IMG/VR virus record: IMGVR_UViG_3300037279_000046
DNA: 64,000 bases
Direction: 5' to 3' (one strand)
From: a virus
Lineage: Duplodnaviria; Heunggongvirae; Uroviricota; Caudoviricetes
How positions within the stretch are numbered: the first letter of the stretch is position 1; every line of letters begins with the position of its first letter. The notes below the pieces were generated by a model that saw nothing but the letters and a program-made list of their open reading frames with translations, was not told where the DNA came from and made no database searches. Both the position numbers and the translations under genes were made by a program. Below are positions 3,351 through 52,534 of the stretch, one piece after another.

Positions 3351-3725
3351 TCACTCAACAAGAAAGTCTAAGAGCATAAGCTCCTCAGACGAGATCGAGA
3401 TATCGTTACCAAGCTCGCTGACAGAAAGCGTAGGGATAGCGATGTCTAGATCTAAGAGTTCGTTCAACTCGTTAACAAACAACTGACCGTTATCGCCTTC
3501 CAAAGGGACATTGCCTTGATCGTCGGTATCTAGGCTACCGTCATCTTTCTTCTTGCCGTAACGGTTCAAAGACGCAAGACGAACTTCATCATACTTGCTG
3601 TACTCTTCGTCGATCTTTTTGATGATGGTCTTGAGTTTAAATGCAGCTTTAAGCGGCAGTTTCTGCGAATTAAGCTGAGTTAGAGTCGCTTTAAATTTAG
3701 GGTCGATCAACCTAGATAACTTCAT
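3351..3725 (-). CDS. hypothetical acidic protein (paralog of 2819..3202)
   Basis: C-terminal ...PTLSVSELGNDISISSEELMLLDFLVE; lengths are similar (124 vs 127 aa). Confidence 0.5.
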   Translation of the reverse strand: MKLSRLIDPKFKATLTQLNSQKLPLKAAFKLKTIIKKIDEEYSKYDEVRLASLNRYGKKKDDGSLDTDDQGNVPLEGDNGQLFVNELNELLDLDIAIPTLSVSELGNDISISSEELMLLDFLVE

Positions 3726-3755
3726 TTAGGCTCCTTTTTCTGATAGGATTATACT

Positions 3756-4076
3756 ATGGGCAATTTCTTCCGCCAACTTTTTAGTGAAAACTCAGGTGTG
3801 AGCATGATGCGAGTCATGTCTCTCCTAGCACTATTTGCGGCAATCGGAATTGGATTCTACGGAATGACAAAACTCCCAGTCGATTATAGTGGAATCACTA
3901 TGTTGACAGGTGTATTCTTGAGTGCTGCCTTCGGTGGTAAGGTTATGCAGAAACGCATCGAAGCTAACGGTGCTAAGTCTGATACCGAGATGACCACACG
4001 CCCTAATGAGGCTATGGCCCCGGTCTCTGAGAAGACTGTCACAAAGATCGACGTTAAGGTCGATAATCCAGACTAA
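3756..4076 (+). CDS. small membrane protein (two predicted TM helices)
   Basis: Hydrophobic stretches LLALFAAIGIGFYGM and ITMLTGVFLSAAFGG followed by a charged tail. Confidence 0.5.
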   Translation: MGNFFRQLFSENSGVSMMRVMSLLALFAAIGIGFYGMTKLPVDYSGITMLTGVFLSAAFGGKVMQKRIEANGAKSDTEMTTRPNEAMAPVSEKTVTKIDVKVDNPD

Positions 4077-4345
4077 AAACGACCGGACCTACCCTAATCG
4101 GATAGGCCCGATCTACTCCTCGGGAGAGTAACCGATGATTGCCATCGATACATATCCCTTGATTCAGATTTCAATCCTATCGCGTTTAAATCGTTCAAAT
4201 GATAAAGATATCATTCGTTCTTGTCGTGTGTTCTTGGACGTCCTAGGGCCATTAGATTGAATTGTTACCAGCCCCCTCCAATAGACTACTGACTAACTAC
4301 TGTTCATGTTAAGATAAGGCTAGGTATCTATAGGGTGGAGTCGAG

Positions 4346-4750
4346 ATGGAAAAGAAAACCGGCAAGTCGCTTGAAGACAAAGTAGACGCTATTAGCGAAC
4401 AGCTCCACAAGATGGACAAGGATTTAGCACTTCAACAGGCTGCATTCGTAGAACTGTCGCGCCACCATGAGCTGCTATATCAAGAACTTAAACGCTCAAA
4501 CGATATCCTAAAAGCTAATACAGACTCTCTCAGAGAGCACATGCACAGAACCGAACTACTCGAGGATCTGGCTAACAAGATGGACGGACGTCTATCACCT
4601 ATCGAAAAAAGACAAATTGAAGAAGACGCTGTTCGCAAGCACAAGCATGAGACCTTAGTCCGTTGGGGCAAGATACTTGCTGCACTTGTTGCATTTAGCG
4701 GTCTTCTAATGTGGGCTAAGCCTTTACTGCTTAAGTTGCTTCTCCCATAA
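4346..4750 (+). CDS. coiled-coil protein with C-terminal TM anchor
   Basis: Charged heptad-like N-terminus and C-terminal ILAALVAFSGLLMWAKPLLLKLLLP. Confidence 0.5.
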   Translation: MEKKTGKSLEDKVDAISEQLHKMDKDLALQQAAFVELSRHHELLYQELKRSNDILKANTDSLREHMHRTELLEDLANKMDGRLSPIEKRQIEEDAVRKHKHETLVRWGKILAALVAFSGLLMWAKPLLLKLLLP

Positions 4751-4772
4751 CTCTGGTATAATGTTATAAATA
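4751..4772 (+). promoter_or_regulatory. T4-type late promoter-like motif TATAAATA, preceded by GGTATAATGT
   Basis: Exact TATAAATA at 4765-4772, about 47 nt upstream of the 4820 ATG; AAGGAG ribosome-binding site 8 nt before the ATG. Confidence 0.45.
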
Positions 4773-4819
4773 GGCCGTGAGACTTACCTCACGCCCAATT
4801 ATCTTCAAAGGAGATAAAT

Positions 4820-5203
4820 ATGGCCCTACTTCCTCCAATTCCGGACAATCAGTCTGGCAACATGGGTGGCAGCTCTTCAGCTCCTAACCGTGCACCTGCT
4901 GCTAAAGTTATTCAAAAAGCTTTGGCAAACACTCGCGTTGCTAACCAAGTTGTCGCCGCTCTTAGCGGTCTTTCAACTCCAGCAGCTATCATCGCTACCC
5001 ATGCTGATGCTACTACTGACTTCGCAGCTCTTATGGTCGGCGACATCGTCCTCCATATTCCTGCGACAGCTGGTAACACGTCTTTCGGCGTTGTTGCTAC
5101 TGCTGGAACTGCTCCTGCAGCTGCAGTTGTTGGTGACTTGTACCTTGTGCACCGTCCAGTAAACTTGGACAGCAACATCGGTACAGCTCCCGCGCTCGTT
5201 TAA
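4820..5203 (+). CDS. small Ala/Gly/Thr-rich protein (late gene; possible virion or decoration protein)
   Basis: Flanked by the late-promoter motif, a strong RBS and a strong terminator; isolated plus-strand gene among minus-strand genes. Confidence 0.55.
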   Translation: MALLPPIPDNQSGNMGGSSSAPNRAPAAKVIQKALANTRVANQVVAALSGLSTPAAIIATHADATTDFAALMVGDIVLHIPATAGNTSFGVVATAGTAPAAAVVGDLYLVHRPVNLDSNIGTAPALV

Positions 5204-5218
5204 TTTCAACTCGTTAAA

Positions 5219-5635
5219 CTAGCTCTTATTGGGTCTGGTGTGTTCCACCAGACCCTTTATTTTTTCAGCCACGTATTCCGGATCGTTAAGTAATCGATTC
5301 AATCCGGAGGGGTGGGGCAATTCATAAAAGTTCACACCTAGCATCTTCAATGCGGTAGCGGCAGTTTTTCCTACAGCTATAATTGGTACATCTTTGTGGT
5401 GTGCAATGATCATTGCAAGATGGTTAAGTCTACCCTTGATCTCTTTCATCGTCAGTTGTCTATTGCCTGGTGTTGGTGTATTGACCAGATTGTGCATAAT
5501 AGATATGTTTATCCCTGCCTTTTCAATCCATTCGTGCAACGTTTTACCACTACCGGTGGACATATCGAATGCTCCATTGCCCTTAGACGCTTGCGATGGA
5601 TTAGATCCAATGAATAAAGCTGTGCGCGGTTTCAC
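5219..5635 (-). CDS. uracil-DNA glycosylase superfamily protein with atypical motif 1
   Basis: HPSGLN matches the UDG family-4 motif B (HPSPLN). Motif A is GSNPS instead of GEGPG, which is more like MUG GINPG. Overall spacing matches the UDG fold. Confidence 0.55.
   Translation of the reverse strand: MKPRTALFIGSNPSQASKGNGAFDMSTGSGKTLHEWIEKAGINISIMHNLVNTPTPGNRQLTMKEIKGRLNHLAMIIAHHKDVPIIAVGKTAATALKMLGVNFYELPHPSGLNRLLNDPEYVAEKIKGLVEHTRPNKS
5231..5266 (+). terminator. Rho-independent terminator
   Basis: Hairpin GGGTCTGGTG-TGTTC-CACCAGACCC followed by TTTATTTTTT. Confidence 0.65.
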
Positions 5636-6732
5636 GATGTCCTCGGTTTAATCTGTAAATGATAAAAATCACCAACCGTAGAGCAATTGATTTCTAAGTC
5701 TAGCATGGCTGAACTATCTTCAAAGTCACTATATTTTTCTTTAAAATAAAACTCACTTATGCCTGCCTGCCACAACATTCTGATACACTTAGTGCAAGGA
5801 GATAGGGTGCAATAAAGTATACAATCACCAGTCTTAACTCCTGATCGCACTGCGTTACATAATAAGTTTGTTTCTGCGTGTATTATATAATTATATTTTT
5901 CTGGACGAGATGTGGGTAGAGAACTGTCTGGTCCACCCCTAACGAACCCATTAAAACCTTCTGCCGTAACCGCTAATGTTTTAGGGTCTATTAATAGGGC
6001 TGCAACTTTAGTATGTATGTCGTGTGACTGTGACGCTATAACTACAGCTCTATCGTGATAGATTTTAAGTTTTTTCTCTGAGATCGGGTTATTGGTTTGG
6101 TTAAACTTGTTATTTTTAACTATTCTCTGTATTTGTTCTAAAAAATGTGTTGCAGAGTAATCTAATTTCATAGTGTTGCAAGTAGCACAACTTGTGACAC
6201 AGTTTGATGTTTGGTACCCAATAGAGTTATCCAATCTATCGATTCCATTGTATTTAACTATTGTGTGTTTATTTTTTTGAATGTTGGCAGGGGAAGCGTC
6301 ACAGTAGAAACAATTTTGAAAAATAAGCCCCTTAAACTCATCTAAGGTTAGATTAAAATCATAATTTCTAGCCTTAGCATTGCCCTTATAATCTAGAAAA
6401 ATATTATTGATAGATGTCGTTTTTAGCTGTTCGTCTGTTCGAGCATATCTATTGCCACAGTGGCCACATCCACTTGAGGTGCCATTAATTAAACTTGCAA
6501 CTTTTATTGACTTAAGAACACCACATTTACACTTTACATCTACATATCGTGTTTTTTTTGATTTTAAGTTTATCTTAATGTAAGGAAGAGACATTATTGT
6601 CCATTTATTTATGACAGAATTTAAGGCAATATTCTCTGTCTTAGATGGACGTTTCATACTCTTATTTAACCTCTGCCTACAAAGGCATTTCTCTATCTTT
6701 GATTCACACGTAGGATAGATACACCGACGCAT
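5632..6732 (-). CDS. HNH endonuclease fused in frame to dCMP deaminase
   Basis: N-terminus has a Cys-rich zinc ribbon plus YNGIDRLDNSIGYQTSNCVTSCATCN (HNH). C-terminus has HAETNLL...LSPCTKC (cytidine/dCMP deaminase Zn motifs H-A-E and PCxxC). No Met separates the two halves. Confidence 0.75.
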   Translation of the reverse strand: MRRCIYPTCESKIEKCLCRQRLNKSMKRPSKTENIALNSVINKWTIMSLPYIKINLKSKKTRYVDVKCKCGVLKSIKVASLINGTSSGCGHCGNRYARTDEQLKTTSINNIFLDYKGNAKARNYDFNLTLDEFKGLIFQNCFYCDASPANIQKNKHTIVKYNGIDRLDNSIGYQTSNCVTSCATCNTMKLDYSATHFLEQIQRIVKNNKFNQTNNPISEKKLKIYHDRAVVIASQSHDIHTKVAALLIDPKTLAVTAEGFNGFVRGGPDSSLPTSRPEKYNYIIHAETNLLCNAVRSGVKTGDCILYCTLSPCTKCIRMLWQAGISEFYFKEKYSDFEDSSAMLDLEINCSTVGDFYHLQIKPRTS

Positions 6733-7538
6733 TACTTTTTCTTCTCTTCGATTGCGGGTTCTTGCGTATATAATATGTAATCTCTGTATTCAAAGACATA
6801 TCTATTATCCCGATGACGACTTGACGTTGAAACCTTATAGGTATATGAAGAGTTAAAGAACGGAGTGAAAGCTTCGCCTTTGCGAGTCATCTCGCGTTCG
6901 CATTCCATGATACATCTAACCATGTAGTCAGACTGAATGTCTTGGGCACTCATAGGAACCTTAACGATCTCGTTAATAACAACTTCTGTTTTATATCTAC
7001 CTGTGAAATCCTGAGTGGTCCAGTATTTATCTCCAACTTTAAGCTTATCGAAGAAGTCATTAAACCCCTGAAGTGTTTTAAACTTCTGACCCTTCTTGCG
7101 GTTGACCTTAGTGATGATCTTGCGTTGCTCTAACGCCTGCGAGTGGATCTTCTTGATGTCAAAGTCGCCACCCAAGAACGTTGCTTCTGCAAACTCAGGA
7201 TCAACTTCAAATCTTGTGGATTTGTAGTCAAAATCAGTCATCGACCAGATCTCTTGACCAAGAGTGCCGTTAGCAACGCGAAGCTGCTTAATATAGCCGA
7301 TACCAAACTCGTCTTCATGGATGTAGACGTAACGCTGAGCCATCTTATTGTCGGAATTTATATTTTCCGTAATCCACTCAGTCTCATCACGAGGCTTATA
7401 TCGAGCCTGTTTACGAATGAGAACGTCGCCGATCTCGAACTTCATGAATTCTTTAATCACCATCCACTTGCGGATAGGATTACTATTCATCTCGCCTTCG
7501 AGTTGCTGTTTCTGTTTATCGTCAAGCTCAACTTTCAT
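6732..7538 (-). CDS. hypothetical protein
   Basis: 268-aa ORF with ATGA-type overlap to the downstream gene; no motif recognised. Confidence 0.5.
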   Translation of the reverse strand: MKVELDDKQKQQLEGEMNSNPIRKWMVIKEFMKFEIGDVLIRKQARYKPRDETEWITENINSDNKMAQRYVYIHEDEFGIGYIKQLRVANGTLGQEIWSMTDFDYKSTRFEVDPEFAEATFLGGDFDIKKIHSQALEQRKIITKVNRKKGQKFKTLQGFNDFFDKLKVGDKYWTTQDFTGRYKTEVVINEIVKVPMSAQDIQSDYMVRCIMECEREMTRKGEAFTPFFNSSYTYKVSTSSRHRDNRYVFEYRDYILYTQEPAIEEKKK

Positions 7539-7622
7539 ACTATCTTCCTGTGTCCGATTTCATAGGTCCGCAAACTTTGCAGACAATACGAGTGCCCTGA
7601 GAATTGCCGTGCTGGTCAACTA

Positions 7623-7772
7623 CTTCTTGCCAGAATCACTGGTGAGGAGGACATTCTTTCTTCTCCACGATAATCTGGTTACCATGAGCAGATCCATCTG
7701 TAGGCTTAGCGGCAGATGCTGCTAGACGTGGAACAATGACTACTAGTGCAAAAATGACGATTAAGACAAATA
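7623..7772 (-). CDS. small membrane protein (49 aa), absent from the ORF track
   Basis: Minus strand reads GGAGGAATAATG then MDFVFVLIVIFALVVIVPRLAASAAKPTDGSAHGNQIIVEKKECPPHQ*; strong RBS and one TM helix. Confidence 0.35.
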
Positions 7773-7781
7773 CAAAGTCCA

Positions 7782-8045
7782 TTATTCCTCCGGATCGAGT
7801 TCAGTTGACGAGATACTATCTTCTTTAGCTTCTAAGTCATCGATGATGCTCTGTGCACCAACAAATACACGATGTGGATCGTGAGTCACCTTCTTAAGGC
7901 GTTTCATTTTAACTTTTTGCTTGATCTTTCCACGGATAGGACAATTAAACTCTACTTCAACTTCCACGATCTCTTCAATTGTCGGGTCTTCGAATACATG
8001 CTTCTTTTTGTTTTTAGCACCCTTGGGTCTAGCCATTATTTCCAC
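7782..8045 (-). CDS. hypothetical basic protein
   Basis: 87-aa ORF, Lys-rich. Confidence 0.45.
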   Translation of the reverse strand: MEIMARPKGAKNKKKHVFEDPTIEEIVEVEVEFNCPIRGKIKQKVKMKRLKKVTHDPHRVFVGAQSIIDDLEAKEDSISSTELDPEE

Positions 8046-8572
8046 TCCGTATCAATAATCTGTTGCAATGCCATTGTGTATGCCTTGATGGGCCCTGGTA
8101 CTTTGCGCGTATACGCGTACGAACACCATTCTTTGTACGATCCTTGAATAATCAAGGTTGTATATATGTTAATGGGGGTAAGGACCTGTGATACAAACGC
8201 ATCTGCGCCATCTGCTTGATAGGCTCTGGGATTGATAAGAAGGGCAGCAGTTGTGCGAGAAATATCATTAGAGATCGCTTGTGCTGTAACGACGTCGCTT
8301 CCTCCAAGCTGAGCTGCCGAAGGGATATATGCTTCTGACTCGACATCTGCATTCTCCGTGTTGATGATCTTAAATGCAAACTTAGATAGGTCTAGCTGAA
8401 CAAACAGTGGACACTTCATAACTACAGTGAGTGACCCCAAGTCTTCAAGAACAGTAGGGTATTTACCAAAGAAGAACTCTTGATCTATATCTCTTAGTTT
8501 CTGAGTGGTATTGCAGCTATCGATAAGGGCAACGAAGCCCTTATCGAGAACTGGTATCTTATTGAGTAGCAT
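8036..8572 (-). CDS. hypothetical protein
   Basis: 178-aa ORF, overlapping start/stop with neighbours. Confidence 0.5.
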   Translation of the reverse strand: MLLNKIPVLDKGFVALIDSCNTTQKLRDIDQEFFFGKYPTVLEDLGSLTVVMKCPLFVQLDLSKFAFKIINTENADVESEAYIPSAAQLGGSDVVTAQAISNDISRTTAALLINPRAYQADGADAFVSQVLTPINIYTTLIIQGSYKEWCSYAYTRKVPGPIKAYTMALQQIIDTEWK

Positions 8573-9051
8573 TACAGGTCCTCGTCTTCCTCTTCGACCT
8601 TAGCTTCTTCTTCTTCTTCTTCTTTTTTCTGAGCAAAAGGATTATTCTCGTTGTCGTCTTCAGCAATACCTGCACGACAAGTGTAATCCTTAACGTCGTC
8701 AAACACGCCATCGAGCATCGACTCAGTAATGATGTCTTGGAAGTGAGCTTCGATATAATCAACCGTGTTCTCGTCCAAGATCTTCATAGCAGCAGCCAGA
8801 TCTTTTTGCAAGATAACAACTTTAGCATGATGCTGGTGATCTTTCCACATGATGCCGACAGTCTCACACATCTCTTCAAATGTGAAGACGCCGCGGATCG
8901 TAGAGGGTAAGAACTTAGCTTTAGAGCGATCGCCTGAGCTAACAGCCACGAGGAATGATTCTGATTTAAGGGAAGAGAGATCCATCGTCTCTAATTCACC
9001 AATGAAATCATCTCCGGTCTTAACTGGCAAGTTCATATTTGGATCAGACAT
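8572..9051 (-). CDS. hypothetical protein with poly-Glu C-terminal tail
   Basis: 159 aa; the (GAA)n run at about 8596-8640 encodes KKEEEEEEAKVEEEDEDL. Confidence 0.5.
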   Translation of the reverse strand: MSDPNMNLPVKTGDDFIGELETMDLSSLKSESFLVAVSSGDRSKAKFLPSTIRGVFTFEEMCETVGIMWKDHQHHAKVVILQKDLAAAMKILDENTVDYIEAHFQDIITESMLDGVFDDVKDYTCRAGIAEDDNENNPFAQKKEEEEEEAKVEEEDEDL

Positions 9052-9245
9052 TTATCACCTCTGGATTATATATTATTTCGGATCTTTTAACTCACCGTAT
9101 GTACGTGGACGCACAGTATACAGGGCAGTATAGCGAAAGCTATCTACCGATAAAGTCTTGATCTTGCCCTTAGAGTCTTGAATCTTAATGAAAGGATCTG
9201 TAGCTTGAAGTCGATTAGCTCTATCTCTAGGTGCAGGCTTAATCT

Positions 9246-9506
9246 CTAAAACAGTGAAGTGGCTCTTAGCTGAACCAGTTCAGCTTGTTCTGCTGGAGTC
9301 AACGGCTGCATGAGCTGGCCAAGCAGTGTCGTAATTTGTGACACAGTTAGAGTACTCGTACCAGTTGTAAGCTGCGGCATACCAAGGCCACCGATATTAT
9401 TGTTGTTGCCGCCAGGAATCGGCTGATTCTGGTTCAACATATCGTTTAGATCTTTTGTAAGCTGATCTATTGGATCGTCTTTTTTATCGAATGGCCACAT
9501 ACTCAC
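9246..9506 (-). CDS. hypothetical protein
   Basis: 86-aa ORF, Asn/Gln/Thr-rich, overlaps the upstream gene end. Confidence 0.35.
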   Translation of the reverse strand: MSMWPFDKKDDPIDQLTKDLNDMLNQNQPIPGGNNNNIGGLGMPQLTTGTSTLTVSQITTLLGQLMQPLTPAEQAELVQLRATSLF

Positions 9507-10300
9507 ACCTCACCGAGCATCTTTTTTACCATCTCTTCGTTCTTCTCATAGATGTGTAAGCTGTGCACAGTGTGAGTGTAATGTCCTTTAGTGAGGTTAG
9601 GATACACATCTTTAAGTTCTGCAACCATCTTATCCATGAGACCGCAGAACCACGGAAGGTCGTATACAAGACCCAGAGTGAGATCGTTCGAGCGCATGAC
9701 GACAGATAGATGTAACTGGTCGTTGCGGATCAAGAAGTTGCCATGCATCGTGCAAGTCTGATCCTTATTGCCGACCCACTGATGTTCTGGAAGAGAGAAA
9801 CGTAGGATAGCCTGACGAGTATCTTTATCAGCAAGAAGAGACTGCTTCGCCCACTCCCAAGGAGTGCGCATAACGTTTTCTTCTACTAGGAAGTGCGCAG
9901 TTTCTCCGTTTTCGTAGACACCTTCGTGGACAACTGTTTGGCGCTCAAAATGAGATCCGCTTGACTTTTTAGACCAGATAAGATGGCCGTACGCGCTGTT
10001 AACAGTGCCGTCAGGGTTAGCGAGACTGAGCCAAAATTTTGAGGCTCGTCCGAAATCCTCTGCAGAATTCGTGCAGGAATCATATAGCTCCACTTCTTTC
10101 CGGGTGTATGAAGCAATAGTTTCGTTGCGCTTTGGATCTCGAGTAACGATAGGATCATCAGTAGGTCCCAAAACCCGGAATGAGTAGTCGAGTACTTCTC
10201 TGCAAGGTTGCCCGCGTGGCGCGCTCTTGACGTCAGGGTTGTAGTAGACATCCGCGAGGGTACCGAGATAGGCTTCCGAGACATTTTTATATACTTTCAT
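9503..10300 (-). CDS. thymidylate-synthase-fold pyrimidine hydroxymethylase/methylase homolog; predicted dCMP hydroxymethylase-like (Asn to Asp specificity switch)
   Basis: Aligns to the ThyA core: QTCTMHGNF vs PCHAFFQF (catalytic Cys), MRSNDLTLGLVYDLPWF vs QRSCDVFLGLPFNIASY. The PFN Asn is replaced by Asp, as at Asp179 of T4 gp42. Confidence 0.75.
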   Translation of the reverse strand: MKVYKNVSEAYLGTLADVYYNPDVKSAPRGQPCREVLDYSFRVLGPTDDPIVTRDPKRNETIASYTRKEVELYDSCTNSAEDFGRASKFWLSLANPDGTVNSAYGHLIWSKKSSGSHFERQTVVHEGVYENGETAHFLVEENVMRTPWEWAKQSLLADKDTRQAILRFSLPEHQWVGNKDQTCTMHGNFLIRNDQLHLSVVMRSNDLTLGLVYDLPWFCGLMDKMVAELKDVYPNLTKGHYTHTVHSLHIYEKNEEMVKKMLGEV

Positions 10301-10326: not shown

Positions 10327-11013
10327 CTAATACTCTTTGGTCATTAGTTCTAATTCAGCCGAGTAAATGTTTGAGCGAAGAAGCTCGACGAAGAATACAC
10401 TCTGGTGTGACTCAATCTCAAAACCCTTCTTGATGTATTTAGTGAGGCGACGAATGCTAACCCCACGTGGAACGGGATTGAAGCAGATCTTCTTCTGAGT
10501 GCAGTCTTCCATAGAGCCTGCAACTACATAAAGAACACCTAGATTGGGATCGATCGCCATGGAGCAAGCGCGAATGTCAAAACGAGAGATAAGGTGGGCA
10601 GGCGAAGTGTGCTCTACTCCGTAGATCAAGTTTACTTTCTGTGAACCTAGATGACCGTATGCGCACATAGGATTAGTAAAGTCAAAGTGTGCGGCATTAA
10701 GTTTAGCAAACTCCTGAGCAAGTTCTTTGGTCTGGAAGTATAGATCGATATCGTCGTACGTGAGTATGAGTCCAGCTAGCTGTTTAGCAACGATGCTCAT
10801 TACGTATGAACCAGAGATAAGTGTGCCAAACGGAAACTTAACTCCGGTGTTTATGTTTATAGAACCTTTGCGCACTTCTACGTTAGCATCGTAGTCATCC
10901 ATCAGAAGAGCGCTGCCGAGATGTGACAGTTGCTCTTTATATAGAGCTTCACCCTTTTTGATATCTTGAACAAGAGGAATAAAGAACTTAGGGTTGATTA
11001 AGAAATCGCTCAT
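10327..11013 (-). CDS. hypothetical protein
   Basis: 228-aa ORF with a GS...DxD-like segment (LGSALLMDDYDAN, DIDLYF); a nucleotidyltransferase fold is possible but not established. Confidence 0.5.
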   Translation of the reverse strand: MSDFLINPKFFIPLVQDIKKGEALYKEQLSHLGSALLMDDYDANVEVRKGSININTGVKFPFGTLISGSYVMSIVAKQLAGLILTYDDIDLYFQTKELAQEFAKLNAAHFDFTNPMCAYGHLGSQKVNLIYGVEHTSPAHLISRFDIRACSMAIDPNLGVLYVVAGSMEDCTQKKICFNPVPRGVSIRRLTKYIKKGFEIESHQSVFFVELLRSNIYSAELELMTKEY

Positions 11014-11544
11014 GCTTTCTCCAGATATTGAATAGCTCTGATAAGAGTGTTTATATTCTCTTTAGAGTTGCCAATCATCACGTTGCAATTGAAACATAAA
11101 AGCCCTCTCACTTTACCTGTCGTATGACAATGATCAACATGGAACCTAGAACTAAACTCTGATGCATATCTTTCACAGACTCCGCATTTGTTGTCTTGAG
11201 AATGAAGCAATAGTTCATAGGCCATGATAGCTTCTTTAGGAGATAATTCTGGCCAATACTTAGTTAAGTGGTGACCTTTATTGTTTCTTTTTTTCTTGTA
11301 CGGTATTTAAAGATTTCCAATTTGCTTTTAACTTAGAAATAAACTCTGGATTATTTTCACGATAGTTTTTCGAAGTTTGACAAGTGCATTCGCGACATGA
11401 AGGCTCTAAACCATCTTTTGCTTTTTTCTTTTTATTAAAAAGCTTTAAAGGTTTAGGTGTTTTGCACTTTGTACAAACTTTATTTTTCACTATCATGCTC
11501 CCACAAAGTCTCCTCAATGTTCGCGTGCCACACACCGTATCCAT
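11010..11544 (-). pseudogene. Endonuclease VII-like gene split across two frames (frameshifted copy of the 29241/45050/49887 family)
   Basis: ORF 11278..11544 encodes the Cys-rich N-terminal zinc-ribbon half; ORF 11010..11225 encodes VDHCHTTGKVRGLLCFNCN (the Endo VII core). The two halves are in different frames with a 52-nt gap. Confidence 0.5.
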
Positions 11545-16396: not shown

Positions 16397-16470
16397 TGGC
16401 AAACCGCCCAGGAATCGAACCCGGTCTAAGAGGTTTGGAATCTCTTGTGCTACCGTTACACCAGCGGAAT
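16397..16470 (-). tRNA. tRNA-Trp (anticodon CCA) candidate
   Basis: Minus-strand read has D-arm GTGT/GCAC, anticodon arm AGAGA-TTCCAAA-CCTCT, T-arm CCGGG-TTCGATT-CCTGG and an encoded CCA. The acceptor stem has two U-U mismatches. Confidence 0.5.
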
Positions 16471-17784: not shown

Positions 17785-19212
17785 TTACACCTTTACAGGA
17801 TAAGCACGAGCACGCACTTGATCCAGAGTTGATTGGTTAGTCAACACACCGTTCAAGAAGACCTGCTCAAGCAGTCCACCTTTTTCGTCAGCAGCAGATA
17901 CTTGATCTGTTGTGACGTAACGACCGTTGATGAAATCAAGACGCATTCTACCCTTGTGCGATTTCTTGCCCGAGTCAGTAATAGGGTCCTTAACGATGTC
18001 GCGCTCTTCTCCATTAACTTCTACGTAAGTGGTCTTAACAGCGAAGCCTTGGTCGTCACGGCTGTGCGATTGCAACAGCAATCCACCAACACCGATAACG
18101 AGATTAGAAGACGCAAATCCCATGCCCTTTAGACGCGCGAGGATGCACTCGTAACGGTCAAAATACATTCCGTCGCCGTAGATCAGGCCTACTTTAGGAT
18201 TCAATTCTTGGAAGCCTAATGCGTTCGTTGTCGTACCGAACTGGCGAGCCAACAGACGCATAGCACCGAGGTTCTCAGCAGAACCAGCAGGAGCAGACGG
18301 GTTTCCACAGATGATGAGCTCTGGGTCACCAGAGTCCGGGCGGAATACCACTTTGCCGTCACGAGCCATGATGCGCTTGTAAAGTACCTGAGTGAAGTTC
18401 TCAAGAACATTCCACAGGTTATAGGTATCAGACACGATAGAGACGATGCCGGTAGGGTAAGTGTTGAGCATGTGCTCAAACGCCTTCAACTCATGTTCCT
18501 GACCGTACGAACACATAACTGAGTGCTCAGATGCAGGGACAGAAGCACCGATAAGGCCAGTCGCAGCGTAGTTCTCCATCAAGAACTTAACAGCCGGAAC
18601 GGTATCTGTTCCACGGAAGTTGATCAAGTGAGCAGCACCAGAGATAGCCGCAGTCTCCTCAGACGAGCAACCACGGTATCCGAAGTCATGGACAGCCCAA
18701 TCGCAGTGGAGACGGTTGCCTACAGTTTCATCCGCGTATGTGTCTACAAGGTTACGCAACTTCATAGAGTACGAACCAACAGTTGTCGGGTTCCATACTT
18801 TAAGAACGAGCGACTCAAAGAAGCCAACTGTCCAAGCGAAGTCAGGATGAGTATTGGTCATCGTGAGAAGAACGTTCTTAACGGGCAGAACAGTTCCTTC
18901 TGGAACAGCTTTGATCTCCAAGGGGATATAACCAAGGTCTGCCAATGCGTGCATCTTTTCAAAGATGTGGCGCGGGGTAGGTCCGAGAATCGATTCACGT
19001 ACCTGCAAGAACTCGTTCACCATTGGGTGAGTGATCTTCTGTGCCAAGTAGTTCTTCAAGATAGGCTGAAGCCCATTGAAGAGCGTGAACGGAATCTTCT
19101 TGTCGGAGCGAGCAACGAGATAGGCGTAGGCCTTAGTGATCCCCTCTGGGAACTGCTCCATGTGCCCCATCTTATATACGTCAGTGCAAAGTAATACGTT
19201 ATCGTTAATCAT
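17785..19212 (-). CDS. nadV: nicotinamide phosphoribosyltransferase (NAMPT/NadV family)
   Basis: 475 aa with DFGYRG, GTDTV and FRPDSGDP, the hallmark NAMPT/NAPRT type II PRT motifs. Confidence 0.85.
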   Translation of the reverse strand: MINDNVLLCTDVYKMGHMEQFPEGITKAYAYLVARSDKKIPFTLFNGLQPILKNYLAQKITHPMVNEFLQVRESILGPTPRHIFEKMHALADLGYIPLEIKAVPEGTVLPVKNVLLTMTNTHPDFAWTVGFFESLVLKVWNPTTVGSYSMKLRNLVDTYADETVGNRLHCDWAVHDFGYRGCSSEETAAISGAAHLINFRGTDTVPAVKFLMENYAATGLIGASVPASEHSVMCSYGQEHELKAFEHMLNTYPTGIVSIVSDTYNLWNVLENFTQVLYKRIMARDGKVVFRPDSGDPELIICGNPSAPAGSAENLGAMRLLARQFGTTTNALGFQELNPKVGLIYGDGMYFDRYECILARLKGMGFASSNLVIGVGGLLLQSHSRDDQGFAVKTTYVEVNGEERDIVKDPITDSGKKSHKGRMRLDFINGRYVTTDQVSAADEKGGLLEQVFLNGVLTNQSTLDQVRARAYPVKV

Positions 19213-23270: not shown

Positions 23271-23347
23271 TGGTACTCGAGGTGAGACTTGAACTCACAC
23301 TGTGCAGGGTTTAAGTCTGCTGCCTCTGCCAGTTGGGGTAGTCAAGC
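23271..23347 (-). tRNA. tRNA-like gene, anticodon loop CUUAAAC (anticodon UAA if canonical)
   Basis: Acceptor GCTTGAC/CTCGAGT (6 of 7 bp), perfect T-arm GTGAG-TTCAAGT-CTCAC, A73 and encoded CCA. The D-arm is poorly paired and the variable loop is 5 nt. Confidence 0.4.
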
Positions 23348-23438: not shown

Positions 23439-23534
23439 TGGAGGAAGGTATCCGATTCGCACGGATGAAACCCAGTGTTAGTGGGTTTACCAGGGTTCAA
23501 GCCTGGCGCAATAATCTATCTCTGCCAACCTTCC
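23439..23534 (-). tRNA. tRNA-Ser (anticodon UGA), type II
   Basis: Acceptor GGAAGGT/ACCTTCC, 3-bp D-stem, anticodon arm CCAGG-CTTGAAC-CCTGG, variable arm AAACCCA-loop-TGGGTTT, T-arm ATCCG-TGCGAAT-CGGAT and encoded CCA. Confidence 0.6.
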
Positions 23535-24504: not shown

Positions 24505-24580
24505 TGGCTGACGAGACAGGGTTCGAACCTGTGACCTAACCGTTAACAGCGGTTTGCTCTACCAACTGAGCTACACGTCA
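24505..24580 (-). tRNA. tRNA-Asn (anticodon GUU)
   Basis: Canonical cloverleaf: TA-GCTC-AGTTGGTA-GAGC, anticodon arm AACCG-CTGTTAA-CGGTT, T-arm ACAGG-TTCGAAC-CCTGT, encoded CCA. Confidence 0.8.
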
Positions 24581-28045: not shown

Positions 28046-29236
28046 CTATGTCTCTTCTGGTTCTATTTTAGGTGCTTCTTGAGGCTTAACTGGGTTTGCG
28101 TAATCATACATTCCAGGCTTAACAGTAAAATGCATGTGATCAGGTGCTGCGTGGTGCGAAGCCAGTTCGCGCATTTGTTTATTTGAGCCTGAATTATTAC
28201 TCTGACCTGGGAGTCTAGATCCTATAGTCTGAATGTGAGATACTGGAACCCATGCAGAGTGAAGATCGCCGTACGTCTTAGCTGCATCCTCGTTAGTCCA
28301 CCAGCCTTCGCCTTTGTGACCTACTTTTCCATCTTTAACTTCAAAGAGAGAATCTTTCCAGTCAGGACCGTAGTTTTCTTCAGAGGCCGCTTCATCATAG
28401 TTCATGCCGCGATGAAGCTTCAAATGAAGCTCTGGCTTACCAGTAGCAGAGTTGGTGCGTGTCTGAAAATGGCTCTTAGCGTCTGGTTGGCCATTAAAAT
28501 ATTTAACTGCCGCTAACTGTGTTCGCTTTTCCTCTGATGGATCATTAGTACGAGGATTATGCTCTAATGTACTAGCACTTCTAGGAAAAAAGTCATCTTC
28601 ATTCTTGATTGGGTTTACAGGCTTGGGGGCAAGGCGACGCATAGCACCTTTTTCCAAGCCATCAGACTTTGGGTCTTCACTCTCCTGGTCGCGATCAAAC
28701 AGCTCAATAAAGTCAGAGAGACCTTGAGGAGATAGGGACTTGATGAGGTCAGAGAGCTGAGCGTCATCTTGGAACTTCGCCTTCATCAGAGTGTAGAGTT
28801 CATCTACAGTGATGTCGTTCTTCTTGAGGCGTTTCTTCCAGGCGCGAAGCTTCTTAGGGTCAACATGATGACGACCACGGTTAAGCTTCTCAGGGACTGC
28901 ACGGGTGTTAGATGCTGCGTAGCCCTTGCTGTTATCTTTACGATCTGGAGAGAGTTTCTCGCCGGTCTTCTTCTCAGCAGTTTGAATCTGCTTCACGATG
29001 CTCTTACGTGAACCAAGTCCTGATGACTTCTTAGAAGCCGTACCGTTCTTGCCCTTTTGGCGGCGAAGAGCGTCATCAGCTTTAGTCTGAGCACGTTGTG
29101 AAGAACCTGGCTTCTTCTTAGCAGCGGCAAGTTTCTTTAAGCAAGCTGAGCAGCGGCCACTAGGGTTTCCCTTAGAGGCAGAGGCGCCACCACAGCGAGG
29201 ACATTTCTTTTCGAGAACTTCAGTGAATTCACTCAT
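28046..29236 (-). CDS. zinc-ribbon protein with long basic disordered region
   Basis: N-terminal CPRCGG...CSAC, about 150 aa of Lys/Arg/Ser-rich low complexity, and an unassigned C-terminal domain. Confidence 0.5.
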   Translation of the reverse strand: MSEFTEVLEKKCPRCGGASASKGNPSGRCSACLKKLAAAKKKPGSSQRAQTKADDALRRQKGKNGTASKKSSGLGSRKSIVKQIQTAEKKTGEKLSPDRKDNSKGYAASNTRAVPEKLNRGRHHVDPKKLRAWKKRLKKNDITVDELYTLMKAKFQDDAQLSDLIKSLSPQGLSDFIELFDRDQESEDPKSDGLEKGAMRRLAPKPVNPIKNEDDFFPRSASTLEHNPRTNDPSEEKRTQLAAVKYFNGQPDAKSHFQTRTNSATGKPELHLKLHRGMNYDEAASEENYGPDWKDSLFEVKDGKVGHKGEGWWTNEDAAKTYGDLHSAWVPVSHIQTIGSRLPGQSNNSGSNKQMRELASHHAAPDHMHFTVKPGMYDYANPVKPQEAPKIEPEET

Positions 29237-29240
29237 GATA

Positions 29241-29714
29241 CTATTCTACCGCACTATGCTTCTCAACATATTCGGCTAGGCGTCTAATAACTTCAGGATC
29301 ACTTCTAAGATAACCTTCTGCCCTATTACACGCATCACACAGTAAGCCTCTAATTTTATTAGTCTTATGGCAATGGTCAACGGCTAATTGTTTAACGGTT
29401 CCATTTTTATGAGTAGAAGTCTCTGGTCTTAAACACACAGCGCATACATAATTTTGCTTTATTAGCATTTCATTATATTGAGATAAAGAGATCCCATACA
29501 ATCTCTTGAATCGAGCGTTATCTCCTTTTCTCGGATTCTGCTTATATAACTCTTTTGCTCTTACAGAATAATAGTCTTTATAGTTTTTTCTCACTCTAGC
29601 TGCAACACAGATTTTACATGAAGATTGCAGCAAATTTGAATTCTTACCTCTTTTAGAGAATTCGTTGTTTGGTTTGCTTAACTTGCATTTATTACAAATT
29701 TTATGGCCAAGCAT
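29241..29714 (-). CDS. Endonuclease VII-like (T4 gp49 family) protein with N-terminal Cys-rich extension
   Basis: YVCAVC...VDHCHKTNKIRGLLCDACN; compare T4 endo VII HLDHDHEL..KVRGLLCNLCN. Confidence 0.7.
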   Translation of the reverse strand: MLGHKICNKCKLSKPNNEFSKRGKNSNLLQSSCKICVAARVRKNYKDYYSVRAKELYKQNPRKGDNARFKRLYGISLSQYNEMLIKQNYVCAVCLRPETSTHKNGTVKQLAVDHCHKTNKIRGLLCDACNRAEGYLRSDPEVIRRLAEYVEKHSAVE

Positions 29715-31853: not shown

Positions 31854-32615
31854 TTATCGAATCGGTATATTGCGACCCTTTAGTTCTTCTAAACTCCAAA
31901 CTTCTACATTGATAGAAGGATAGTCTTGCTTAAGTAATTCATACTTAACTTTGGCGTCATCTTGCCACCAACCTTTTATCTCAACGTAGTGGTCTCTACT
32001 TCTATCATAGAAGTCAATTATATAAGTTCGACCATCAGAAAGATTAAAAGGAACTTGCCAGTCAAAATCTACCTTATTAGTATTTAAGTAGTTAACTACA
32101 TTGCGCTCCCATTTTCCTTTACATTTAAGAATATCTAGTGTCTTCCAATGTTCAACTTCATAGATATTAGAACAGTTAGTGACCCTTTTTAAGATAAGTT
32201 CTGGGTCATGGTTACGAGCTATGATTTTTTCTAAGTTGAGACAACCACAGGATTTAGCATTACCTGAAGTAAGTGAACCTGCTCTGATTGTGGTTTCTTT
32301 GCCACAGTCACACAAACATCTATAAACAACTCCCCTTTTAGGGAGTTGAATTCGTTCTAATGCTAAAAGCCTATTAAGCTTTTGACCAGTGAGATTTTTA
32401 TTGCGTGTTATACGTATCTTCTCTAAGTTTAGACAACCACAAGATTTGGTATTACCGGTTACTAGTCCATAACTTCTTACAATAAGAGAATTACCACAAT
32501 CGCATTTACATTCATAAGCAGTTTTGTCCAAACCACTTTCTTTTCCTGTAAGACGCTTAATTGTAAGTAAACGCCCAAATCTTTTACCTGTATGATCTTT
32601 AGCTCCATTTTTCAT
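31854..32615 (-). CDS. putative homing-type endonuclease: duplicated zinc-ribbon modules plus C-terminal PD-(D/E)XK-like nuclease motif
   Basis: Two copies of YECKCDCGN...GNxKSCGCLNLEKI; C-terminal IIDFYDRSRDHYVEIKGWW (D...E-x-K). Confidence 0.5.
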   Translation of the reverse strand: MKNGAKDHTGKRFGRLLTIKRLTGKESGLDKTAYECKCDCGNSLIVRSYGLVTGNTKSCGCLNLEKIRITRNKNLTGQKLNRLLALERIQLPKRGVVYRCLCDCGKETTIRAGSLTSGNAKSCGCLNLEKIIARNHDPELILKRVTNCSNIYEVEHWKTLDILKCKGKWERNVVNYLNTNKVDFDWQVPFNLSDGRTYIIDFYDRSRDHYVEIKGWWQDDAKVKYELLKQDYPSINVEVWSLEELKGRNIPIR

Positions 32616-45049: not shown

Positions 45050-45571
45050 ATGAAAAATTGTTCCAATTCTAGTTGTACACAAGTAAATCCTCAACCATTA
45101 ATTAACTTTGCTAAAAATCAAAAGAGCAAAGATAAACTACAACCATGGTGCAAATTATGTTGTAAAAGGCGACAAGCTGAATATCAAGTACAAAATAGAG
45201 AAAGTGTCAACAAAACTGCAAGAGAGTGGTGTAGACGCAATAAAGAAAAAACCAACAAGAAATGCAAAGAATATTATGACAATAATCCAGATAAAGTTAA
45301 AGACTATAAGTTGCGAACTAGTTTTGGCATAACATTAGAACAATATAGGAAAATGTCTGCAAGTCAGAATCACACTTGTGCTATATGTAAACAGCCAGAA
45401 ACTTCTAAAGATCATAGAGGGAAGTTGAGATATTTAGCAGTCGATCACTGTCATAAAACAGGTAAAATTAGAGGCCTATTGTGTCAAAAACATAATAGAA
45501 TGCTTGGTCTTGCAAACGATGAACAACATATACTGTTGGCAGCTGCAGATTACGTTAGTAAAAATAAATAA
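45050..45571 (+). CDS. Endonuclease VII-like protein with Cys-rich N-terminal extension
   Basis: HTCAICKQPE...VDHCHKTGKIRGLLCQKHN; TATAAT-like box 8 nt upstream. Confidence 0.7.
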   Translation: MKNCSNSSCTQVNPQPLINFAKNQKSKDKLQPWCKLCCKRRQAEYQVQNRESVNKTAREWCRRNKEKTNKKCKEYYDNNPDKVKDYKLRTSFGITLEQYRKMSASQNHTCAICKQPETSKDHRGKLRYLAVDHCHKTGKIRGLLCQKHNRMLGLANDEQHILLAAADYVSKNK

Positions 45572-49886: not shown

Positions 49887-50360
49887 ATGGTAAAACAATG
49901 TCGTAGATGTAATGAGTCAAAATCTGTCGGTGATTTTCCAAAATGCAAAACCAATAAAGATGGTCTATACTCTTATTGTAAAGAATGCAATTCTCGTAAA
50001 GTTAAAGGCCACTACGTGGTTAAATCAGAAGAAAGAAAAGCATATCAAAGGTCTGTATCTAAGGCAATACAAAAGGATAGGGATCTTAAGTCAGTTTATG
50101 GAATTACTCTCGAGCAATATAAGTTAATGCTGAAAAATCAAGACGGTAAGTGTGCAATTTGCAAACAATATGAGACAAAAGTTAATTCAAAAAGCAAAGA
50201 AACTTTAATGCTCTCTGTGGATCATAGTCATAGAACGGGCAAAGTAAGGGCCTTATTGTGTAATAGATGCAATAGAGGACTTGGTTACTTTAAAGATAAT
50301 CCAGAGTTTTGCATTTCTGCGGCAAATTATCTAACCGAACATAAAGATATAATAGAGTGA
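49887..50360 (+). CDS. Endonuclease VII-like protein with Cys-rich N-terminal extension
   Basis: GKCAICKQYE...VDHSHRTGKVRALLCNRCN; possible TTGACA box upstream. Confidence 0.7.
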   Translation: MVKQCRRCNESKSVGDFPKCKTNKDGLYSYCKECNSRKVKGHYVVKSEERKAYQRSVSKAIQKDRDLKSVYGITLEQYKLMLKNQDGKCAICKQYETKVNSKSKETLMLSVDHSHRTGKVRALLCNRCNRGLGYFKDNPEFCISAANYLTEHKDIIE

Positions 50361-51174: not shown

Positions 51175-51771
51175 TTACCAAATCAAAGGTCCTCTTAGTA
51201 ACTTGAGGACTTTGATGATTTCTAAGAATTCTGAGTAAGAAACTAAATCAGACTTAAGTCTGTTGCAGCTTTCACAACATGTAACTACGTTTTGTTTAAT
51301 GTATCCAAGCGAAGAGTCTTTTCTATCAAGACCATTATAGACATAAGCACCATTCAGTCTAGAATCGTTCATTAAAGTCGACGGCTTCATGTCGCAATAA
51401 TGACAATCCATTTTAGTTAGAAGACTAAAATCCTCTTTAGAAATCTCAAAGACTAAATCTCTTAACTTTGCTGAACCTTTATAGTTCTTATAGACATAAT
51501 TCATGGCAGCTTCACCAACGGGCTTTGTATGAGCTGGTTGTTTACCTCTTGCTAGGTTGCCAATAAAGCTTTTTAGATGTTCTTTCTTCAGACAGCCACA
51601 GCTCTTCTTGCTTCCGCGTTTTAAATTGCTGGCATTCACCTTAACCTTATTTCCACAAGAGCAAATGCAGTTAGTATAAAGTCGACCTCTCTCGCCTACA
51701 AAAGTAGATTCAACATATAGTCGGCCAAATTGCTTATTTAATACTTCTTCTTTTAGATGCGGATTGTTCAT
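51175..51771 (-). CDS. HNH homing-endonuclease-like protein (same family as the N-terminus of 5632..6732)
   Basis: CICSCGN...SCGCL zinc ribbon plus YNGLDRKDSSLGYIKQNVVTCCESCN. Confidence 0.7.
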   Translation of the reverse strand: MNNPHLKEEVLNKQFGRLYVESTFVGERGRLYTNCICSCGNKVKVNASNLKRGSKKSCGCLKKEHLKSFIGNLARGKQPAHTKPVGEAAMNYVYKNYKGSAKLRDLVFEISKEDFSLLTKMDCHYCDMKPSTLMNDSRLNGAYVYNGLDRKDSSLGYIKQNVVTCCESCNRLKSDLVSYSEFLEIIKVLKLLRGPLIW

Positions 51772-51796: not shown

Positions 51797-52534
51797 TTAA
51801 CTAAAAAGTTCAGTGTAGTTTTCTCTTAAAGATTGAGCTATATCAGGCAACTCTTTTTCAAAAACTTCAAACGCTGCTGCTGCAATTTCTCTATGTTCTA
51901 GTTGAGTTGACTTATCAAGTCTTGTCATAAAATAAGTCATCCACGATCTAATAGATCCACTCATATAGAGTGTAGTTGAGCAACCGAGAGGCAATACAAA
52001 TCTAGCACATTCCTTAGCAATCCCATTGTCAAGCGCCCAAGTATAATGTTCAAATGAACTCTTCCAATTCTGGTCTTGGCGATCGAGCCACTCTTGCTTT
52101 ACTAATTCTGACAGATCGTCTATTGAATTCTGGCGGTTCTTTACGTCTTGTCTTCTTGCAGCATATAGCTGAAGTCCGCCTGCGTCTACCGCCGCATATC
52201 GCTGGCTAAACTCTTGAAATGTAAAAGAACGATGTCTCAATAGTTGAGGACTAATTCCTCTTGAGGTTTTCACTTGAATGGTGAGAGTTCCCATCTCAAA
52301 TGGACTCCAATGTTTATGCTTTAACAGATAATTTATCAACCTAATTGAAGTGTCGAACTTAAGTTGATTTTGTGGCGCAGAAACTCTCGCACAATACACA
52401 ATTAACTCCTGAGCTCCAGGCGTACAAGATAATAATTCGACTAGCTTTTCTGAAGAAGAAACATTCGATAATTCTTCGATAATTTTGTCATCACTCTGCA
52501 TTATTTGGCTCCTCATTTCTGGTAAGATTATCAT
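51797..52534 (-). CDS. thyX: flavin-dependent thymidylate synthase ThyX
   Basis: ThyX signature LLRHRSFTFQEFSQRY (RHRx7-8S). Confidence 0.85.
   Translation of the reverse strand: MIILPEMRSQIMQSDDKIIEELSNVSSSEKLVELLSCTPGAQELIVYCARVSAPQNQLKFDTSIRLINYLLKHKHWSPFEMGTLTIQVKTSRGISPQLLRHRSFTFQEFSQRYAAVDAGGLQLYAARRQDVKNRQNSIDDLSELVKQEWLDRQDQNWKSSFEHYTWALDNGIAKECARFVLPLGCSTTLYMSGSIRSWMTYFMTRLDKSTQLEHREIAAAAFEVFEKELPDIAQSLRENYTELFS

Follow-up and report, generated by a model that had tools for sequence, protein, structure and literature searches.

A PacI-type nuclease module fused in frame to the dCMP deaminase of an uncultured phage, with features of a homing-endonuclease-type gene

The minus strand of a 64,000-nucleotide stretch of DNA (IMG/VR record IMGVR_UViG_3300037279_000046; the whole stretch is called the window below), which comes from a ~175-kb uncultured phage of the Caudoviricetes, carries a gene in which a nuclease is joined in one reading frame to the product of cd, a dCMP deaminase. 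We interpret it as a predicted homing-endonuclease-type gene fused in frame to cd, and as a whole package, an active and selfish nuclease included, this reading is probable. Its architectural part is near certain, and the part that calls the nuclease active and selfish has roughly even odds. The evidence lies in the architecture, the exact position of the junction, the active site's conservation, the sporadic distribution of the nuclease half and its rate of evolution, which differs from that of its surroundings. Judged from the sequences, the fusion looks like an old and recurring feature of uncultured phages, with the nuclease as a dispensable add-on.

The gene is one unbroken open reading frame (ORF), and the original prediction of an in-frame nuclease-deaminase ORF of 366 amino acids was confirmed. 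Its parts are as follows.

5632..6732, minus strand: whole ORF, 366 codons plus stop
6658..6732, minus strand: upstream extension MRRCIYPTCESKIEKCLCRQRLNKS, 25 codons, translation uncertain
5632..6657, minus strand: likeliest coding sequence, 341 amino acids from Met26 plus stop, the start used by nearly all homologues
6448..6657, minus strand: N-terminal zinc module, amino acids 26-95, with invariant C68, C70, C89 and C92
6103..6447, minus strand: helical region and predicted PacI-type His-Me finger core, amino acids 96-210
6235..6240, minus strand: Asp165-Arg166, aligned to PacI D92-R93; Asp as predicted metal ligand, Arg in place of the general-base His of canonical HNH
6214..6216, minus strand: Tyr173 of the omega loop, aligned to PacI Y100 and standing for the catalytic histidine
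6175..6177, minus strand: Asn186 of the core helix, predicted second metal ligand, PacI N113
6079..6117, minus strand: inter-domain linker, amino acids ~206-218, ending at the position of the initiator Met of unfused cd
5635..6078, minus strand: predicted dCMP deaminase domain, amino acids 219-366, from PF00383 and solved relatives

With near certainty, the predicted product is one polypeptide: after a zinc/DNA-binding module comes a PacI-type nuclease core whose active site is complete, and a short flexible linker then leads to a complete dCMP deaminase. The linker of ~13 residues (…NKFNQTNNPISEKKL…) contains no stop and no in-frame ATG, GTG or TTG, and no promoter-like or terminator-like sites were found on the coding strand within the gene. 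A separate deaminase made from an internal start or promoter was rejected on the missing linker start codon and promoter-like site. In the AlphaFold model (whole-model predicted local distance difference test, pLDDT, 92.8; predicted template modelling score, pTM, 0.61), the linker has a pLDDT of ~60 in an otherwise 90+ structure, and these two values predict no fixed contact between the halves. A sequencing error or undetected frameshift, one of the explanations offered at first, is excluded because the gene is identical in independent assemblies: at least 24 contigs encode the 341-amino-acid protein, and separate ENA, JGI and Logan assemblies, the ENA and Logan ones from other samples, agree on the gene at every base. 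The window itself differs from JGI contig Ga0397551_0000003 by 1 base in 14.6 kb. The intein-like element proposed alongside it does not fit either, as the module is N-terminal and lies upstream of the first cd residue, and no Pfam Hint or intein family was matched at E<=1.

Comparison with homologues leads us to favour Met26 as the start, not firmly, and translation may or may not include the 25 codons before it. The equivalent of Met26 (341 amino acids, position 6657) is the choice of nearly all homologues and of the gene callers of three sources, and the 100% identical protein P0001 starts there. The extension is missing in nearly all homologues, with short extra N-terminal stretches in P0011 and P0015. 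With its ATG it overlaps the stop codon of the preceding gene (TAATG), and the Shine-Dalgarno evidence is ambiguous for both candidate starts (Met1 and Met26). Four cysteines (C4, C9, C16 and C18) lie within the extension and might, if it is translated, make up an additional zinc knuckle.

The N-terminal half is predicted to consist of a zinc module and a His-Me finger of the PacI class (group 20), and not of a canonical HNH domain. The “complete HNH endonuclease” of the original prediction holds as far as the nuclease half is concerned, since amino acids ~14-212 match phage endonuclease VII (EndoVII) and HNH PHROGs (phrog_1035, E=1.7e-13; phrog_3118, E=5.9e-13). However, the canonical HNH assignment fails: Pfam PF01844 reaches E=0.92 with the N-terminal half alone (10.2 bits vs a cutoff of 21.4) and gives no match at E<=1 on the whole protein, and the active site has Asp-Arg, not Asp-His. 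PacI is the only significant solved sequence relative (E=3e-6) and also the top structural match. Core motifs are CxYC (C141, C144), YNGIDR, GY, N177 and CxxCNxxK (C182, C185, N186, K189); the beta-beta-alpha-metal fold of PacI-type His-Me fingers is present, and the Cys4 zinc site C141, C144, C182 and C185 aligns to the PacI cysteines. In the alignment, G-V-D-R-S-D-S-F-E-G-Y-S-P-Q-N-…-C-F-I-C-N-R-I-K of PacI stands opposite G-I-D-R-L-D-N-S-I-G-Y-Q-T-S-N-…-C-A-T-C-N-T-M-K of the fusion. PacI founded the one His-Me finger group that lacks the general-base histidine; an omega-loop tyrosine stands in for it there, and an Asp and an Asn bind the metal (PMC5714182, PMC4081073). Its Y100 was taken as the catalytic Tyr from reviews and the alignment, being the only Tyr between the two beta strands. 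The zinc module is a small beta-barrel that presumably binds DNA.

The C-terminal half is a predicted complete dCMP deaminase of the PBCV-1 bi-DCD type, and the complete cytidylate deaminase domain that had been read from the sequence was borne out. Pfam dCMP_cyt_deam_1 (PF00383) matches amino acids 223-330 and scores 58.9 bits where the cutoff is 25 (E=5e-16), with HAE at 5872..5880 and PCTKC at 5785..5799, and H285, E287, C313 and C316 are kept in all 52 fused proteins described below. When the family profile was compared with solved structures, the best matches were PBCV-1 bi-DCD (7fh4, E=9.5e-28), human deaminase (2w4l, 2e-24) and S-TIM5 Cd (4p9c, 2e-21), followed by matches to S. mutans 2hvv and T4 Cd 1vq2; mononucleotide deaminases span E=1e-27 to 1e-14, while cytosine, tRNA and guanine deaminases score only ~1e-4. 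Foldseek with the AlphaFold model gave the same ranking, with 35% identity to 7fh4. The GYNG loop, which work on S-TIM5 reportedly links to the allosteric site, is conserved. A second structural zinc site (Cys/His before HxE and a Cys after helix 1) is listed for this clade (PMC3239186), and this site is missing here: the insert ‘RGGPDSSLPTSRPEKYNY’ has no Cys or His, and ‘SHD’ replaces the Cys-bearing motif. In the profile alignment, PBCV-1 bi-DCD likewise lacks those residues, so the deaminase half is a PBCV-1-like short form that still belongs to the clade. By analogy with this relative, it may also act on dCTP.

A search of 5.8 billion proteins returned ~50 proteins of 261-356 amino acids that contain both halves at 40-100% identity. 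Together with four from a 1.84-billion representative library, the fused set has 52 members in ~8 clusters at 50% identity. In the nuclease core of these 52, D165, Y173, N177 and K189 are kept in every member, R166 in 51, N186 in 50 (Ser in the other two) and the four HNH cysteines in 51-52, and the Tyr of YNG is replaced by His in three. The HNH domains of distant members are only 31-48% identical. Active-site positions that stay while the domain diverges this far indicate that the nuclease active site is under selection. The zinc module is missing in 12-13 fused members, and at least two such clades lie inside long contigs, thus they are not truncation artefacts.

The fused architecture is rare in the collections of viruses. 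Among the 80 best related loci of IMG/VR, 3 are fused and 77 have a cd without the nuclease half. In BFVD, A0A6J5KVY7 of an uncultured Caudovirales phage (the same as P0034) is the only full-length match among viral proteins, at 44% identity, and INPHARED holds no record that covers at least 80% of the protein and no close DNA relative of the window. The 150 best hits in the 1.84-billion library are almost all free-standing proteins with zinc repeats and a PacI-type HNH. P0050 (499 amino acids, on a 3-kb contig) shows an amidohydrolase (PF01979) region, a partial HNH core and a deaminase nearly identical to that of P0038, and more likely reflects a chimeric assembly than a third architecture. 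Some BFVD ‘dCMP deaminases’ of cultured phages are also about twice the usual length, for example A0A6G8RAU2 (Salmonella phage rivia, 337 amino acids), A0A2I6PI80 (Pseudomonas phage PMBT14, 319 amino acids) and A0A3G2YSD3 (Serratia phage, 311 amino acids); they align poorly outside the deaminase core and may carry other, unrelated extra domains.

The position of the junction is precise. Unfused cd proteins start with M-I-S-E-K-K-L…, M-I-T-D-K-K-L… or M-S-T-L-S-T-K-K-L…, and the fused ones read …S-L-I-T-E-K-K-L… at the junction (…N-P-I-S-E-K-K-L… in the window). As far as the alignment of these starts tells, the nuclease frame joins cd exactly at the former cd initiator codon, which is what would be expected if a free-standing upstream gene had lost its stop and the spacer. 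This agrees with the proposal in the original prediction that a homing-endonuclease-type gene at the 5' end of cd is now read with it as one polypeptide. At the DNA level, three pairs of related loci from two phage groups show the module as a clean insertion or deletion, with similar DNA on both sides and a homologous upstream neighbour.

L006 (fused) vs L005 (unfused): ~407 bp extra in L006
L008 (fused) vs L018 (unfused): 384 bp extra in L008
L013 (fused) vs L020 (unfused): 344 bp extra in L013

Direct repeats flanking the module in the window were searched for, and only short, chance-level matches were found.

Two genomic settings of the gene were observed. That of the window has a ThyA-like gene … a ~260-amino-acid gene – cd – a uracil-DNA glycosylase (UDG)-like gene; in the other, cd lies between genes for 616 and 184 amino acids, near GroEL, a helicase and PolA. 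The occurrence of the fusion in both settings and in 52 proteins, down to ~40% identity, rules against a recent invasion, which had been suggested. The comparison with related cd loci that had been called for was also made: a search for relatives in which the two genes are separate found none, and relatives are either fused or have a cd with no HNH gene in the ~3 kb upstream that the comparison covered. In two of the 77 unfused IMG/VR loci, an HNH gene lies 1-2 kb downstream of cd. Moreover, L033 and L037 have neighbouring genes 45-73% identical to those of the window (compared with 3354..9279), yet an unfused cd of only 46% identity, while phages with more distant neighbours (28-48%) have a cd that is 62-72% identical to that of the window. 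This discordance between the L033 cd and its flanks indicates that cd alleles were exchanged at this locus at least once, in one direction or the other. A free-standing relative was seen at another kind of site: at 3862..5108 of L094 (a 384-kb contig), P0054 lies between a 29-amino-acid fragment and a 168-amino-acid gene, both matching DUF6915, and this endonuclease gene appears from its position to have inserted near the 5' end of a DUF6915 gene, splitting it.

To follow the fused and unfused states, a neighbour-joining (NJ) tree of 87 deaminase domains with 100 bootstrap trees was combined with Fitch parsimony. This gave 11 state changes, with a range of 9-15 over the 100 bootstrap trees. 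Unfused cd are scattered among fused ones (bootstrap 95 for P0072+(P0008,P0009), 58 and 62 for two other groupings); for example, P0047, P0067, P0072 and L017, all unfused, have fused proteins as their closest relatives, at 68-81% identity.

The nuclease half also diverges faster. The mean HNH-half distance is ~2 times the deaminase-half distance, and between L011 and L013 the nucleotide identity is ~80% in both flanks and 48-63% in the HNH half. For this pair, the nonsynonymous divergence (dN) is 0.51 in the HNH half, 0.05 in the deaminase half and 0.08-0.11 in three neighbouring genes; the HNH domain is constrained, but far less than its surroundings. A cassette swap between P0035 and P0042 (deaminase 96% and HNH 46% identical) was considered and rejected: the flanks are only ~80% identical and the synonymous divergence (dS) is saturated, therefore fast divergence in place explains this pair equally well. 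Base composition differs as well. In the window, the GC content at third codon positions (GC3) is 0.24-0.29 in the HNH half vs 0.44-0.49 in the two flanking genes, and it is lower in the HNH half than in the flanks in all 6 fused genomes examined. In 4 of 6 fused genes the AT-rich bias extends to the deaminase half, while unfused cd matches its flanks in 3 of 3, a contrast that is suggestive only.

The gene lies in a genome with several related nuclease genes, and the other relevant features of the window are listed here.

5219..5635, minus strand: UDG-family-4-like gene, 138 amino acids, downstream of the fusion, with a GTG start that overlaps the fusion stop (GTGA)
6732..7538, minus strand: upstream gene of 268 amino acids, no function assigned, the left neighbour of cd in fused and unfused relatives alike
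51175..51771, minus strand: free-standing paralogue of the nuclease half, 198 amino acids, zinc module and PacI-type HNH, beside thyX
11010..11225, minus strand: PF02945 EndoVII ORF
29241..29714, minus strand: PF02945 EndoVII ORF
45050..45571, plus strand: PF02945 EndoVII ORF
49887..50360, plus strand: PF02945 EndoVII ORF

Through the GTGA overlap, the fusion gene is translationally coupled to the UDG-like gene in a nucleotide-metabolism operon. The UDG-like gene is the conserved right-hand neighbour of cd in many relatives and is absent in L033/L037 and L007; UDG models match its 138-amino-acid product weakly (E=2e-6), which leaves glycosylase activity uncertain. The deaminase of 5632..6732 is the only one within the window. 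The paralogue at 51175..51771 adjoins thyX (ThyX is encoded at 51797..52534) and the gene for ribonucleotide reductase (RNR); it had been called closely related to the nuclease half, a description that 31% identity over 170 amino acids (E=6e-21) reduces to membership of the same family. Most HNH- and EndoVII-type ORFs rank among the lowest-GC3 ORFs of the window, and the three EndoVII ORFs that were ranked (starting at 29241, 45050 and 49887) have a GC3 of 0.23-0.28 vs a window mean of 0.44. With four EndoVII and two PacI-type HNH copies in 64 kb, the genome looks heavily colonised by genes of the homing-endonuclease type. A strain polymorphism in a small EndoVII gene between L001 and L002 was rejected: a single base separates these loci, and the apparent difference came only from the gene callers.

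Several other genes of the window were noted. The product of 31854..32615 (minus strand, 253 amino acids) has the zinc-repeat N-terminal modules of the HNH family (hidden Markov model match E=5e-26, in the repeat region only), and its C-terminal part matches different endonuclease/resolvase PHROGs; a different nuclease part on the same zinc repeats suggests shuffling of DNA-binding and nuclease modules. In the protein from 28046..29236 (minus strand, 396 amino acids), an N-terminal CxxC…CxxC is accompanied by a degenerate ‘SPDRKDNSKGYAASN…LNRGRH’ that resembles the PacI-type core minus its cysteines, and the protein may be a decayed or repurposed PacI-type copy joined to an uncharacterised C-terminal region. 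A thymidylate synthase-family protein of 265 amino acids (9503..10300, minus strand) has the CMP 5-hydroxymethylase MilA (E=7e-16) and T4 dCMP hydroxymethylase (1e-13) as its closest solved relatives, not true thymidylate synthases; together with the separate ThyX, it suggests that the phage may make DNA with 5-hydroxymethyl-pyrimidines. The window also encodes a nicotinamide phosphoribosyltransferase homologue at 17785..19212 (minus strand; phrog_448, E=2e-155). Four tRNA genes, for Trp, Leu, Ser and Asn, lie at 16397..16470, 23271..23347, 23439..23534 and 24505..24580.

From the above, the evolution of the nuclease half resembles that of a dispensable and selfish cassette: at one and the same site some syntenic phages have it and others lack it, it is fast-evolving and AT-rich, and it has free-standing kin in the genome. 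Homing endonucleases are expected as free-standing ORFs or embedded in introns or inteins, and here the frame is continuous with cd; their sporadic presence at one site, their association with nucleotide-metabolism genes and their paralogues in the same genome are all found. Under the homing reading, a homing-endonuclease-type gene would first have sat between the upstream gene and cd and would then have joined in frame to cd at its start codon. The deaminase half, from what is known of its family, would supply dUMP, possibly also from dCTP, for the ThyX of the phage. The nuclease half keeps all that a PacI-type enzyme is predicted to need (Cys4 zinc site, Asp and Asn ligands, omega-loop Tyr and Arg). 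An active nuclease would cleave those cd loci of co-infecting relatives in which the module is missing and would spread by gene conversion, and repair copying might drag along the attached deaminase. Such a fusion would persist because its loss needs a precise deletion that restores the cd start, and precise deletions would nevertheless have happened repeatedly.

Several results weigh against this reading. No significant remnant of a decayed HNH was found in the unfused loci L005, L009 and L010, and the precursor arrangement, an unfused HNH gene followed by cd, was not found in the 77 related IMG/VR loci. Gains and losses cannot be told apart on the NJ trees, whose deep support is weak, and since synonymous sites between L011 and L013 are saturated, the dN/dS ratio (omega) of the HNH half is only bounded, at ~0.16-0.45. 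The trees of the two domains agree in their local clades and their pairwise distances correlate (Mantel r=0.36, reached in 0 of 2000 permutations), which indicates mostly co-inheritance and would also fit a domesticated two-domain enzyme. Finally, persistence to ~40% identity with intact catalytic residues outlasts the usual cycle of invasion, decay and loss of a purely selfish endonuclease.

A domesticated bifunctional enzyme, in which the nuclease would serve the phage, for instance by cleaving the DNA of the host or of competitors or by holding the deaminase at DNA or at the replication complex, appears unlikely to us. Such an enzyme agrees with the catalytic residues that are intact across 52 diverged members and with the local clades that the halves share. 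It also agrees with the nucleotide-metabolism module around the gene (the coupled UDG-like gene, the hydroxymethylase-like ThyA nearby, ThyX and RNR in the window), and a Cd fusion of this kind might couple DNA breakdown to dUMP/dTMP supply in a phage that possibly has hydroxymethyl-pyrimidine DNA. Since the known dCMP deaminases form oligomers and PacI works as a dimer, the fusion could help the nuclease to dimerise. However, the ~9-15 state changes on the deaminase tree kept cd while the nuclease half was dropped, 77 of the 80 related IMG/VR cd loci in the same syntenic module do without it, and it evolves 5-10 times faster than either the deaminase half or the genes next to cd. In addition, an HNH cut gives DNA ends and not mononucleotides, so substrates could not be channelled directly, and the pTM of 0.61 and the low-confidence linker predict no fixed interface between the halves.

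Less probable still is a nuclease-dead accessory domain with a DNA-binding, zinc-stabilised or oligomerisation role that would regulate or localise the deaminase. PacI, which is a functional restriction enzyme, has this same set of Asp-Arg, omega-loop Tyr and Asn as its active site, and the fused proteins keep these positions at 96-100%, while elsewhere the domain falls to 31-48% identity. The general-base His is nevertheless replaced by Arg, Pfam gives no HNH match, and some members have changed further (two with Ser at the metal-ligand Asn, three with His at the YNG Tyr and 12-13 without the zinc module); His-less His-Me fingers that are inactive binders, SMAD MH1 and ENPP, do exist (PMC5714182). 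That the gene is an artefact of sequencing or assembly, or that a programmed frameshift, intein or internal start makes it yield two separate proteins, is very improbable: it is identical in at least 4 independent assemblies, the unbroken fusion is conserved in all 52 members, and neither a linker start codon, an internal minus-strand promoter-like or terminator-like site nor a Hint/intein family was found. Post-translational cleavage in the low-confidence linker would be compatible with the sequence, and nothing positive points to it.

A wider reading goes beyond the homing interpretation. The whole HNH-cd gene could be a self-propelled metabolic gene, in which repair copies the nuclease and the attached deaminase into the cd loci of relatives; we consider this doubtful, with some hints in its favour. 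These are the AT-rich bias of the deaminase half (4 of 6), the two unrelated genomic contexts, and the cd of the window, which is nearer to that of distant phages than to that of its closest relative by flanking genes. If true, an auxiliary metabolic enzyme would be the cargo of a homing endonuclease that replaces resident cd alleles across phage lineages. Whatever the reading, this single locus offers a natural series from fused, through fused without the zinc module, to unfused, in which persistence, decay and perhaps domestication can be studied.

Both domains come from known families. With PacI (3ldy/3m7k; group 20 in PMC5714182), the nuclease half shares the fold, the two CxxC pairs, Asp-Arg, the omega-loop Tyr and the helix Asn, and residue for residue the motif G(V/I)DRxDxxxGYxxxNxxxxCxxCNxxK. 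However, PacI is a free-standing bacterial enzyme of 142 amino acids with its own N-terminal region and only ~23-25% identity to the fusion, in which a CxC...CxxC beta-barrel zinc module comes before the core and the deaminase after it. The 2017 classification counted 88 sequences in the PacI-type group, mostly from giant viruses (PMC5714182), and the present results take this His-Me finger without a histidine beyond a small number of sequences from giant viruses and bacteria into a very large family in phages, where it is abundant. For the deaminase half, PBCV-1 bi-DCD (7fh4) is the best solved relative and shares HAE/PCxxC, the GYNG loop and the short insert before HAE without Cys or His; bi-DCD, human DCTD (2w4l), S-TIM5 Cd (4p9c) and T4 Cd (1vq2) are stand-alone proteins of 136-193 amino acids without a nuclease domain, whereas the present one is fused. 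A0A6J5KVY7 has the same two-domain architecture and is annotated just as ‘Cytidine and deoxycytidylate deaminase domain containing protein’, with its nuclease half unremarked. As the fused proteins are labelled only as dCMP deaminases, a probable nuclease has been overlooked in annotation.

Free-standing homing endonuclease genes (HEGs) beside nucleotide-metabolism genes are a classic arrangement. The seg and mob genes of T4 are established examples: they too lie beside or inside such genes, are variably present, occur as several paralogues, have a fast-evolving DNA-binding part and mark the boundaries of genetic exchange. The homing endonuclease genes of ICP1, taken as a comparison for the free-standing form, are likewise placed beside or inside nucleotide-metabolism genes, in several paralogues of variable presence (PMC10448857). 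Free-standing HEGs have their own stop codon, whereas here the endonuclease frame continues into the neighbouring gene. In inteins and split genes, a homing endonuclease likewise coexists with an essential gene without destroying it. However, inteins are internal and splice themselves out by a Hint domain, and split genes give two polypeptides, as in Aeh1, where nrdA is reportedly split by mobE; the present case is a permanent N-terminal fusion without a splicing domain. In the literature searched we found no description of an HNH-dCMP deaminase fusion, nor of a homing-endonuclease-type module that persists as an N-terminal translational fusion to its neighbour. Homing endonucleases are known to coexist with essential genes in three ways, as free-standing genes, in introns or inteins, and by gene splitting. 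A stable N-terminal translational fusion to a nucleotide-pool enzyme, which dozens of uncultured phages have and which has been lost again and again, would add a fourth.

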